Of a stretch of DNA of 39,249 bases, positions 5,448 to 7,056 are shown one piece after another. The DNA comes from a virus. Its lineage: Duplodnaviria > Heunggongvirae > Uroviricota > Caudoviricetes. The first letter of the stretch is position 1, and each line of letters begins with the position of its first letter. Position numbers and translations under genes: made by a program. Under the pieces are notes generated by a model. That model saw only the letters and a list, made by a program, of their open reading frames with translations, was not told where the DNA came from and ran no database searches. The stretch is from the IMG/VR virus record IMGVR_UViG_2519899835_000006. One strand, given 5' to 3'.

Positions 5448-6326
5448 TCAGTAGTTATGTACTGAAGGAGGTAATTCTTTATTCTTAAGTCTCATCCATG
5501 CGGAAAGATTCGTTGGTCCGTCTGGCTCATTAATATCAACATCTCGTGTGTGATTGATTAAAACGTCTCTCGCCATTCCGATAACATACGAGAACTCATG
5601 GCCATAGTCGTAGCATCTGCCGGAATAGTTCGATTGAATTTGTTTTAGCGCCAGATACAGTTCGCGGAATAATGCCTGTGAGCGGTTGGCATAATCCCAT
5701 AACCATACAAGGCTGTTTGCTTCTTTTGCAGAAAGCTCGTTGGTTTTCTTCTCTTGTTTGCCGATAAATTCACCTTCAAGCACTACCCTGTGGATGTACT
5801 CTACGGCCAGCGGGATTTGTTCAATTGAAAGTTCATCAATGCTGTCAATACCAAAACGCTGATGAACCATATTGTATGCATCGTCATAGCGAAGTCCTTT
5901 CTTTCCTACCAGCATGTTTACTGCATCGCGTAGCGGTGTTCTTTGCTCAACAGTGGTTTTCTTGCCTTTCACATACTCTCCATGTTTGCGAATCGAAGGC
6001 AGAACTTCTGCTGTTACCCACTTGCGGAATTTGTGCGGGACTGAACCTTTATTGACAGCATCGCGGCAGCGCAGAACCAATGTATACATACCTGATTCGC
6101 TAACAATGCTTAGATTCTGCTCACCACCAAGGGTGTAACTTAAAGTTACTCCCTTTTCATCGTCATCAAGTGCAGTAAGCGCCTTGCGTGAGTTAGTCAG
6201 AGTTAAAGCATCACAAACATCTTTTGCCACAAACCACGGCTCACCGCACTTGTTGATGACGCGGATTTCACTGTCGCCGAATTTGAAGATGGTGAAATCG
6301 TTTTGTGCCTTTGCTATACTTTTCAT
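5448..6326 (-). CDS. ant: Antirepressor Ant (Bro-N/KilA-N type N-terminal domain); track ORF extends to 6392 but ATG 6326 has an AGGAAA RBS
   Basis: 293 aa from [24 protein letters not shown]...; Bro-N-like N-terminal domain; position downstream of arc in an immI-like region next to the tailspike as in P22. Confidence 0.75.
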
Positions 6327-6359
6327 GTCAATATTTCCTAATCCGATTTGTTGATACCG

Positions 6360-6407
6360 AAGCCCTGACTGTTCCCGCAGTTGGGGCTTCACTGTTTTGA
6401 TTTCTTT
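6360..6407 (+). terminator. Hairpin plus T-tract on + strand just upstream of the ant start; candidate terminator of a sar-like antisense RNA
   Basis: 12-bp stem AAGCCCTGACTG / CAGTTGGGGCTT (two G-U pairs), 6-nt loop, followed by CACTGTTTTGATTTCTTT. Confidence 0.4.
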
Positions 6408-6558
6408 GCCGCATCAAGCATCACTTCTGAAAACGTGCGCTTGCCACTGAATACTCTTTCTCTTCTCAATTTTTCGTTCGTGCCAAATGATTCGCCATGA
6501 ACAAAATTTGGTCTCAAAATGGTAAGCGCAATCTCTTTGACTACTGCATCCAAGCAAA

Positions 6559-6699
6559 TCACACTGTTACCCCCTCCCTCTTCAGGCTGTCCAGCACCCG
6601 TTTAATTACTTCTGCGCTGAATGAGCGACACTCTTCCTTTGCTTTTTCTTCAAGAATTTTTTCTAGCTTCTCTGGCATACGCAGTGTTTTTACCTTCAT
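6559..6699 (-). CDS. arc: Arc-like ribbon-helix-helix repressor (46 aa; below the ORF-track size cutoff)
   Basis: Hand-translated: MKVKTLRMPEKLEKILEEKAKEECRSFSAEVIKRVLDSLKREGVTV; aligns to P22 Arc (NLRWPREVLDLVRKVAEENGRSVNSEIYQRVMESFKKEG); GGAGGA RBS upstream. Confidence 0.7.
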   Translation of the reverse strand: MKVKTLRMPEKLEKILEEKAKEECRSFSAEVIKRVLDSLKREGVTV

Positions 6700-6804
6700 T
6701 GCATCCTCCGTTGTATGTGGTACGCATACATAGCATTTAGGTACGCATTGATAGTCAATAGATACCTACATATCCTGTGGTAAAAAATTATTCAGGATGC
6801 GCCG
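6700..6804. promoter_or_regulatory. Divergent immI control region (Pant/Pmnt-like) with repeated GGTACGCAT half-site-like motifs
   Basis: Sits between divergent arc (-) and mnt-like (+) genes; GGTACGCAT occurs at 6719-6727 and 6739-6747, 20 bp apart. Confidence 0.45.
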
Positions 6805-7056
6805 ATGTCTGATCGTAAGTACAAAAACCCTCAAGTGAATCTGAGGCTTCCTGTAGAGATAAAGGAACGTCTTATTGAACTGGCTGAGGCTAATTCTCGT
6901 TCATTAAATGCTGAGATGGTAGCAGCACTTGAGGCATGGACTGAAAAAAATAAACATATTCAAGCACTAGATCTTGCAACTATAGCATCGCGGTTGATAG
7001 AGCTTGAGCATGAGGTTGAGAAGTTAAAATGTATGCATGGCAACAGTGAAAAATGA
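6805..7056 (+). CDS. mnt: Mnt-like ribbon-helix-helix repressor
   Basis: 83 aa (same length as P22 Mnt); N-terminal RHH signature NPQVNLRLPVEIKERLIELAEANSRSLNAEMVAAL; divergent from arc/ant. Confidence 0.65.
   Translation: MSDRKYKNPQVNLRLPVEIKERLIELAEANSRSLNAEMVAALEAWTEKNKHIQALDLATIASRLIELEHEVEKLKCMHGNSEK

Follow-up and report, generated by a model that had tools for sequence, protein, structure and literature searches.

Within the 39,249-nucleotide viral sequence IMGVR_UViG_2519899835_000006 from IMG/VR (the whole stretch analysed here, hereafter the window), positions 5411-7056 hold the immI module of a Lederbergvirus (P22-like) prophage. The module comprises the antirepressor gene ant, the divergent ribbon-helix-helix repressor genes arc and mnt, the antisense RNA sar and a small open reading frame (ORF) of 57 codons, ORF57 (Table 1). 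Positions 6300-7060 are 99.9% identical to the chromosome of Escherichia coli NCCP15648, with a sole difference at 6734, and we therefore take the window to be a prophage. The phage records closest to 5350-7100 are all Lederbergvirus: Kapi1, CUS-3, phiv205-1, Emek, epsilon34 and P22. The module lies between a gene 16 homologue and the tailspike gene, which is where P22-like phages have their immI region or 'ant moron' (PMC2629481). With its full layout and the mechanism proposed below, the region very probably acts as control centre for a secondary immunity (immI) module of the CUS-3 type.

Table 1. Features of the immI module and its surroundings in the window, and small ORFs found in the arc-sar slot of related loci
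Feature	Position or locus	Strand	Description
Tailspike gene	3368-5347		Tailspike head-binding domain
Intrinsic terminator, end of Pant operon	5401-5430	-	8-bp stem 5430-5411, then TTTTTAT
ant, antirepressor, 292 residues	5448-6326	-	ATG 6326-6324; Shine-Dalgarno AGGAAA 6339-6334; Bro-N and P22_AR_C domains
Psar	6292-6320	+	Within first ant codons; -35 GTGAAA 6292-6297, 17-bp spacer, extended -10 TGcTATACT 6312-6320
sar antisense RNA, ~70 nt	6327-6398	+	5′ hairpin with anti-Shine-Dalgarno UUUCCU in loop (6334-6339); 3′ hairpin stem 6359-6390 plus U-tract as terminator
ORF57	6389-6562	-	GTG start overlaps arc TGA (GTGA); GGAGG 10 nt upstream in last arc codons; TGA stop in sar stem
arc, 46-residue ribbon-helix-helix repressor	6559-6699	-	Shine-Dalgarno GGAGGA 6709-6704; Pfam, PDB, PGAP
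Operator site 1 (putative)	6713-6729		GTATGTGGTACGCATAC, contains GGTACGCAT (6719-6727); covers predicted Pant start; conserved across genera
Pant	6730-6758	-	-35 TTGACT 6758-6753, 17-bp spacer, -10 6735-6730; scan in NCCP15648; predicted start near 6723
Operator sites 2 and 3 (putative)	6735-6771		37-bp imperfect palindrome centred at 6753; inverted repeat 6735-6751 / 6755-6771; near-invariant across genera
Site 2	6738-6751	+	TAGGTACGCATTGA, within Pant spacer
Site 3	6768-6755	-	TAGGTATCTATTGA, within Pmnt spacer
Pmnt	6748-6776	+	-35 TTGATA 6748-6753, 17-bp spacer, -10 TATCCT 6771-6776; promoter scan; predicted start near 6783
mnt, 83-residue ribbon-helix-helix repressor	6805-7056	+	C-terminal helical tail; Shine-Dalgarno AGGA 6794-6797; Pfam, PDB
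Exported-protein ORF, 104 residues	7053-7367	+	Signal-peptide-like N terminus; ATG overlaps mnt stop; phrog_19844
Lipoprotein ORF, 161 residues	7393-7878	+	LLAGC lipobox; phrog_6067; PGAP 'lipoprotein'
DNA-transfer (gp16-like) protein gene	7893-9740		phrog_770
Slot: 67-codon CxxC...CxxC ORF (Zn-ribbon-like)	CUS-3, MS20655		phrog_7150
Slot: 73-codon ORF	611R6, CREC-591		phrog_11805
Slot: 89-codon ORF with hydrophobic helix (membrane-anchored)	19SZHZ803Rt		
Slot: further unrelated ORF	L073		

Repressor and antirepressor genes

A sequence-only reading of the window had described a 46-residue Arc-like and an 83-residue Mnt-like protein, encoded divergently around a 105-bp intergenic region (6700-6804), and had called them an arc/mnt ribbon-helix-helix pair. 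Both ORFs were located as described. Both proteins have the N-terminal β-strand and two helices of the Arc/MetJ superfamily and score above the Pfam Arc cut-off (PF03869; arc 33.6 bits, mnt 40.3 bits, cut-off 20.4). The pairing itself is upheld by solved structures: the best PDB relatives of the 46-residue protein (Arc46) are the P22 Arc entries 1BAZ/1ARR/1PAR and the pArc construct, and that of the 83-residue protein (Mnt83) is P22 Mnt (1MNT, E = 3e-5). Arc46 shares 36% identity with P22 Arc over 39 residues and Mnt83 42% with P22 Mnt over the N-terminal 36 residues only; pairwise comparison yielded no alignment of the C-terminal 35 residues of Mnt83 to P22 Mnt. In the BLASTP alignment, strand residue R7 of Arc46 pairs with R13 of P22 Arc, and the PDB search alignments set PQVNLRLP of Mnt83 against PQFNLRWP of Arc. 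The DNA-facing strand residues are Q-N-R in Mnt83, as in P22 Arc, versus V-T-R in Arc46. In the near-identical NCCP15648 locus, PGAP labels both proteins 'Arc family DNA-binding protein'. As in the P22 type, arc opens the ant operon, with the predicted Pant immediately before it.

The output of the module is ant, again as in the P22 type. Ant belongs to phrog_245, 'anti-repressor Ant' (E = 2.6e-111), and carries Pfam domains Bro-N (72 bits) and P22_AR_C (98 bits); PGAP calls the same coding sequence in NCCP15648, and a terminator after ant is also annotated at the corresponding position in the epsilon34 record. The protein is a mosaic, with Bro-N in place of P22_AR_N at its N terminus, and its gene matches P22 ant in the 3′ 440 nt only (90.7%).

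For comparison we fetched 89 loci through Mnt and 80 through Arc (~170 loci), from hosts that include Arsenophonus, Phlomobacter, Xenorhabdus, Photorhabdus and Chimaeribacter. Among complete E. coli genomes, 878 of 5,426 match some part of 6300-7060. Most of the matches listed span the first ~92 nt only, including those in Stx-type lambdoid prophages, and the segment with Psar, sar and the start of ant is very widespread.

Predicted promoters and putative operator sites between arc and mnt

Pant and Pmnt stand back to back, their -35 hexamers sharing base 6753 and forming the palindrome ATTGATAGTCAAT. A promoter scan of NCCP15648 called three promoters: Psar, Pant (TTGACT-17-TACTAT) and Pmnt (TTGATA-17-TATCCT). 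Across 93 related loci the -10 element of Pmnt is always TAnnnT, and the promoter assignments are supported by the fact that the hexamers vary in relatives only within consensus-compatible forms. An alternative Pmnt, TTGTAT-17-TATTTA (6711-6739), was set aside because it lacks the final T and is unsupported by the scan.

The intergenic region had been read as holding two GGTACGCAT motifs 20 bp apart. Two exact copies are indeed present (6719-6727 and 6740-6748), the only ones on either strand of the window against ~0.3 expected by our own estimate (2 x 39249 / 4^9), but they are spaced 21 bp start to start, with a 12-bp gap, and a third, inverted copy raises the number of repeats to three. The pattern TAGGTAYNYATTGA occurs at 6738-6751 on the + strand and 6755-6768 on the - strand, two matches versus 0.15 expected. 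The three copies have GTAC/ATAC cores with midpoints at 6721.5, 6742.5 and 6763.5, an exact 21-bp phasing. In an alignment of 18 diverse loci, a block of ~65 bp (6712-6776) is nearly invariant while the 5′ untranslated regions on both sides diverge, and conservation stops where these regions start. The repeats lie inside this block, which is preserved from E. coli to Arsenophonus, Xenorhabdus and Photorhabdus, and their description as operator-like is thereby strengthened. The putative sites fall at Pant +1 and in both promoter spacers, such that the divergent Pant and Pmnt are overlapped by candidate operators as in the P22 type, and site 1 has the position relative to Pant that Omnt has there. 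The palindrome at site 1 was scored as a hairpin in one related locus (L007). A 17-bp palindrome GTATG-N7-CATAC was considered as the true site 1 and rejected, as its left arm is replaced in loci L087 and L090 and only the GTAYGCATAC part is constrained.

This arrangement suggests how the switch might work. Pant would transcribe arc, ORF57 and ant on the - strand and end at the terminator 5430-5401, and Pmnt would transcribe mnt and two downstream exported-protein genes on the + strand. By positional analogy with P22, Mnt in a lysogen would occupy site 1, and possibly site 2, keeping Pant off and thereby preventing antirepressor synthesis; once infection or derepression has led to Arc synthesis from Pant, Arc would bind the palindrome of sites 2 and 3 and shut both promoters. 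The assignment of Mnt to site 1 (perhaps together with site 2) and of Arc to sites 2 and 3 is putative.

Several observations weigh against this picture. Because sites 1 and 2 share the 9-mer, a P22-like assignment needs two different β-strands (Q-N-R and V-T-R) to read one core. Unlike in epsilon34, the -35 hexamers overlap, the predicted starts are ~60 bp apart and the promoters lie about two helical turns further from each other; at this distance the two promoters may not compete. The left half of the 17-bp palindrome at site 1 is not conserved in L087 and L090, and the allele is known here from sequence alone. In the ~170 loci, moreover, the 65-bp block, the Arc type and the Mnt type always co-occur; since protein types and block never separate, these loci cannot assign operators to Arc versus Mnt. 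A Xenorhabdus locus (L024) has kept mnt with sites 2 and 3 and lost arc with site 1, a single rearranged case that is not decisive.

It is possible, although we think it rather unlikely, that both repressors, or Mnt alone, read GTAYSYAT at all three phased sites. A Mnt tetramer would then bridge sites 21 bp apart, and either protein would shut Pant and Pmnt together, making Mnt negatively autoregulated, unlike the arrangement of two operators in P22. Such a scheme draws on the one motif type recognisable in the conserved block, present in three copies with exact 21-bp phasing, and on the two -35 and two -10 hexamers, which account for the conservation of the block besides these copies. It also fits the constancy of the block where the Arc strand differs (SPSSVRFP or EPVSVRMP versus KVKTLRMP) and the Mnt strand PQVNLRLP stays the same. 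Yet the two proteins face the DNA with different residues (Q-N-R versus V/P-T/S-R), and the sites differ too: 2 and 3 share the flanks TAGGTA...ATTGA, which site 1 lacks, and 1 and 2 share a core CGC that is missing from site 3. These flank and core differences suggest two reading codes, and the P22 repressors have separate operators; both points speak against a single motif read at all three sites.

A 7-bp 'ATAG' periodicity and TAGA boxes were tried as a match to the Arc-like Q-N-R strand of Mnt83 and dropped, as relatives that share this Mnt strand do not conserve them. Elsewhere, a distant arc/mnt-like divergent pair in an Armatimonadia metagenome-assembled genome (L028, ~1400-1500) has three GGACCACCGTGGTCC copies between its genes, a palindrome that resembles the P22 Mnt operator; three-site layouts may thus be common in the family.

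The sole difference from NCCP15648 falls in Pant. Position 6734 is C in the window and T in NCCP15648 and most relatives, which changes the -10 element from TACTAT to TGCTAT. TACTAT is found in 71 of 93 loci, TAATAT in 12, TGCTAT in 4, CACTAT in 2 and TACTAG in 1. Pant was not called by the promoter scan of the window and was called by the same scan in NCCP15648. The change is likely a down-mutation of the highly conserved second -10 position, and the arc-ORF57-ant operon is probably weakly expressed in this prophage; a lysogen may tolerate such weak expression or even gain from it. A stronger version, which we regard as doubtful, is that the module is recognisable but decaying and that the A-to-G change at the second -10 position silences arc, ORF57 and ant, leaving the switch dead. 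The rarity of TGCTAT, the loss of a promoter call that the otherwise identical NCCP15648 copy retains and the recurrence of -10 lesions in relatives (CACTAT twice, TACTAG once) speak for decay. However, every ORF, sar, Psar and the operators are intact, and TGCTAT is also present in three other loci (L035, L068 and L070) and may be a tolerated weaker allele.

The arc-sar slot and the antisense RNA

The stretch between arc and ant had been taken as ~230 bp without an ORF. Its length stands, at 232 bp (6327-6558), but it is filled by ORF57, and the sar terminator stem (TGAAGCCCC) begins with the TGA stop of this ORF. ORF57 matches phrog_17642 (E = 1e-41), its only PHROG match and a family of unknown function in PHROG. 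Annotations of it exist in phiv205-1 and, under the accession WP_000620145.1, in E. coli genomes.

Among loci with the same or a related arc, this slot holds at least five unrelated small ORFs, or nothing (slot coordinates in relatives: L001 2595-2795, L006 1283-1504, L014 790-1059 and L008 817-914). The inserts each start on the arc stop, (A/G)TGA, and end with a TGA in the terminator stem. Four unrelated cassettes, of 57, 67, 73 and 89 codons, are all open in the arc-stop frame, which composition-matched shuffles keep open in 1.2%, 0.5%, 0.2% and 0.07% of cases (product ~1e-10). As shuffles so rarely keep these frames open, the slot inserts as a class appear to be coding. Beside the slot, the mosaic joint shared with Kapi1 and EC.P3 ends at 6399, directly past the sar terminator.

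ORF57 is probably a small dispensable gene; most likely it is an accessory gene, coupled in translation, whose slot is open to exchange. We give a distinctly lower chance to the alternative that 6395-6558 is non-coding, either spacer or a decaying remnant, with ORF57 an accidental open frame. Taken singly, ORF57 makes a weaker case for coding than the inserts do as a class. Against the Klebsiella aerogenes copy it shows 7 nonsynonymous and 4 synonymous changes, a dN/dS not distinguishable from neutral, and the phiv205-1 copy, with 3 differences, is too similar for a substitution test. Frameshifted and truncated versions are present in databases, and the 'empty' slot of the EC28 type is an in-frame deletion of ORF57 that leaves a 34-nt, 12-codon remnant in 12-13 of ~90 loci. 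PGAP skips the ORF in the near-identical NCCP15648. A word-indexed search of 5.8 billion proteins returned only 10 near-identical clusters, the Pfam search gave no match, and the AlphaFold model is poor (pLDDT 54). Apparent remote homologues from an exhaustive profile search were repeat proteins scoring through 5-7 short repeated stretches, and we judged them spurious. On the other side, the open frame spans exactly the interval between the arc stop and the sar terminator (p ~0.012 by shuffling), is preceded by GGAGG and joined to arc by the GTGA overlap, and remains open in K. aerogenes despite 11 substitutions; the three other unrelated inserts obey the same rule. These points speak against an accidental frame.

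A bolder proposal has two separate parts, and we advance it only tentatively. In the first, tiny genes would be exchanged at a slot dedicated to them, between the arc stop codon and the sar terminator, and could be infection-time payloads and not junk; in the second, three phased copies of one motif may be read by two ribbon-helix-helix repressors, unlike in P22. Genes coupled to arc and ending in the sar terminator stem would be expressed only in the brief burst from Pant, together with the antirepressor. If so, the slot genes could be anti-immunity, anti-defence or host-takeover factors.

On the other side of the slot lies sar. The sequence-only reading had pointed to a + strand hairpin with a T-tract just before ant and had proposed that it terminates a sar-like antisense RNA. 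A terminator scan finds this hairpin with a 14-bp stem (6359-6390) and a T-tract at 6395-6398, and the proposal is confirmed by a full-length Rfam match and a promoter within ant. Rfam RF00262 matches 6328-6393 on the + strand over the whole model (1-68 of 68) with 63.7 bits (gathering score 43, E = 2.6e-12). Folded as RNA, 6328-6399 forms two hairpins at -28.2 kcal/mol (z = -5.9 versus shuffles), and UUUCCU in the loop of the first is complementary to the ant Shine-Dalgarno AGGAAA. The element thus has the features of the Rfam family: it covers the antisense of the ant Shine-Dalgarno, starts from a promoter inside ant and ends in an intrinsic terminator. The Psar sequence TTGCTATACT is almost unchanged in 9 aligned loci, epsilon34 among them, with K. 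aerogenes differing by one base and the -10 region invariant, and the GenBank record of epsilon34 annotates Psar and sar at the homologous place. Rfam detects sar at this place in 11 of 20 related loci, and SEN22 and E. coli 702/18 have a different terminator stem that still pairs through compensatory changes. The Rfam match, Psar, the fold and the epsilon34 annotation together make the inference of a sar-like antisense RNA correct.

P22 sar pairs with ant mRNA and blocks its translation (PMC11016777, PMC13397905), and P22 RNA-seq detects it (PMC13397905). By family membership, sar made from Psar would here pair with the ant leader, including the Shine-Dalgarno, and block translation of ant. 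That the hairpin 6359-6390 is merely structure in the ant mRNA leader or the terminator of some other transcript, with no sar made, is highly improbable: although the sar of this prophage is known here through its sequence, such an account has to set aside a full-length Rfam match well over threshold, a conserved extended -10 promoter at the right distance, compensatory stem changes in SEN22 and strain 702/18, a minus-strand form of the hairpin that has no T-tract, and the sar seen in P22 RNA-seq (PMC13397905).

Downstream of mnt, the two exported-protein genes (7053-7878) would be expressed by the prophage together with Mnt. Their place, with mnt on one side and gene 16 on the other, is that of sieA on the P22 map, and by this analogy the two proteins (7053-7367 and 7393-7878) may act in superinfection exclusion.

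Comparison with P22, epsilon34, CUS-3 and the Rfam sar family

The immI region is the classic paradigm for ribbon-helix-helix repressors and antisense control: in P22, Mnt, Arc and sar regulate ant, with Mnt repressing transcription of arc and ant (PMC2629481, PMC11016777, PMC13397905). The module in the window is correctly recognised, and neither this kind of system nor sar is new; the arc46/mnt83 allele, whose operators and promoter geometry are its own, reads as a little-studied variant of that system. Modestly new are the phased operator layout with three copies, the exchange of small ORFs in the arc-sar slot and the -10 lesions that recur in Pant. Here the same regulatory logic appears to have been rebuilt with unrelated operators and another promoter geometry, offering a natural second system for the study of Arc/Mnt specificity. 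The arc-sar junction is a hotspot for swapping small genes, and lesions in the Pant -10 element recur in prophages. Current understanding is not overturned, and the practical value lies in correct annotation, since existing records often overlook arc, sar and the slot ORF. RefSeq now annotates arc in E. coli prophages, and we regard its absence elsewhere as a gap in older annotation and not in biology.

Like the P22-type immI, the module of the window keeps the same gene order and orientation, lies at the same place, flanked by gene 16 and the tailspike gene, and has ribbon-helix-helix relatives of Arc and Mnt, a terminator after ant, a sar and Psar that are nearly identical in sequence, and putative operators at the Pant start and in the Pant spacer. 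Unlike P22, its Arc has 46 residues and lacks the 6-residue N-terminal arm, the C-terminal half of its Mnt cannot be aligned, its Ant begins with a Bro-N domain and an extra ORF lies between arc and sar. Its putative operators are unrelated in sequence to the P22 Arc operator and Mnt palindrome and consist of one motif in three phased copies.

In epsilon34, which is of the P22 type, Pant (TTGACA-17-TATATT) and Pmnt (TTGAGA-17-TATCAT) interleave their core elements within 34 bp, with the Arc operator in the shared spacer and the Mnt palindrome GGTCCACCGTGGACC at the Pant start. In the window, a site in each spacer and a site at Pant +1 would, by analogy, reproduce this positional logic.

The ant moron of the E. 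coli K1 phage CUS-3 (CP000711) is closer still: the segment from arc through the intergenic block to mnt is 93.7% identical in nucleotides, and the arc46 and mnt alleles, the operators and sar are the same. Unlike the window, CUS-3 holds the 67-codon CxxC...CxxC ORF (phrog_7150) in its slot instead of ORF57 and has a second, P22-type mnt downstream. This second mnt has no P22-type operator nearby and possibly provides immunity against an incoming P22-type Pant. Tandem mnt genes of different specificity are found in CUS-3 and also in MS20655, and in two IMG/VR loci (L053 and L074, upstream of 1501) a mnt83-type gene has lost the control block and directly follows another mnt-like gene. In their epsilon34 paper, Villafane et al. 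(2008) held that ant morons of the CUS-3 and HS-1 types apparently lack arc and suggested a different control (PMC2629481). Contrary to that conclusion, the CUS-3 sequence does contain a 46-residue arc: in its GenBank record (L001 2532-3013), sar, the 67-codon ORF and arc all fall inside the 'bsq2 boundary sequence', with arc and the slot ORF unannotated. As CUS-3-type phages carry this short Arc, they need no different control mechanism.

The sar of the window differs from Rfam RF00262 in the sequence of its 5′ hairpin stem, which departs from the consensus and still pairs, and in its 3′ end, which overlaps the ORF57 stop instead of adjoining the arc stop. It shares with the family two hairpins, matched over the full model, as well as the antisense position relative to the ant ribosome-binding site and a promoter of its own.

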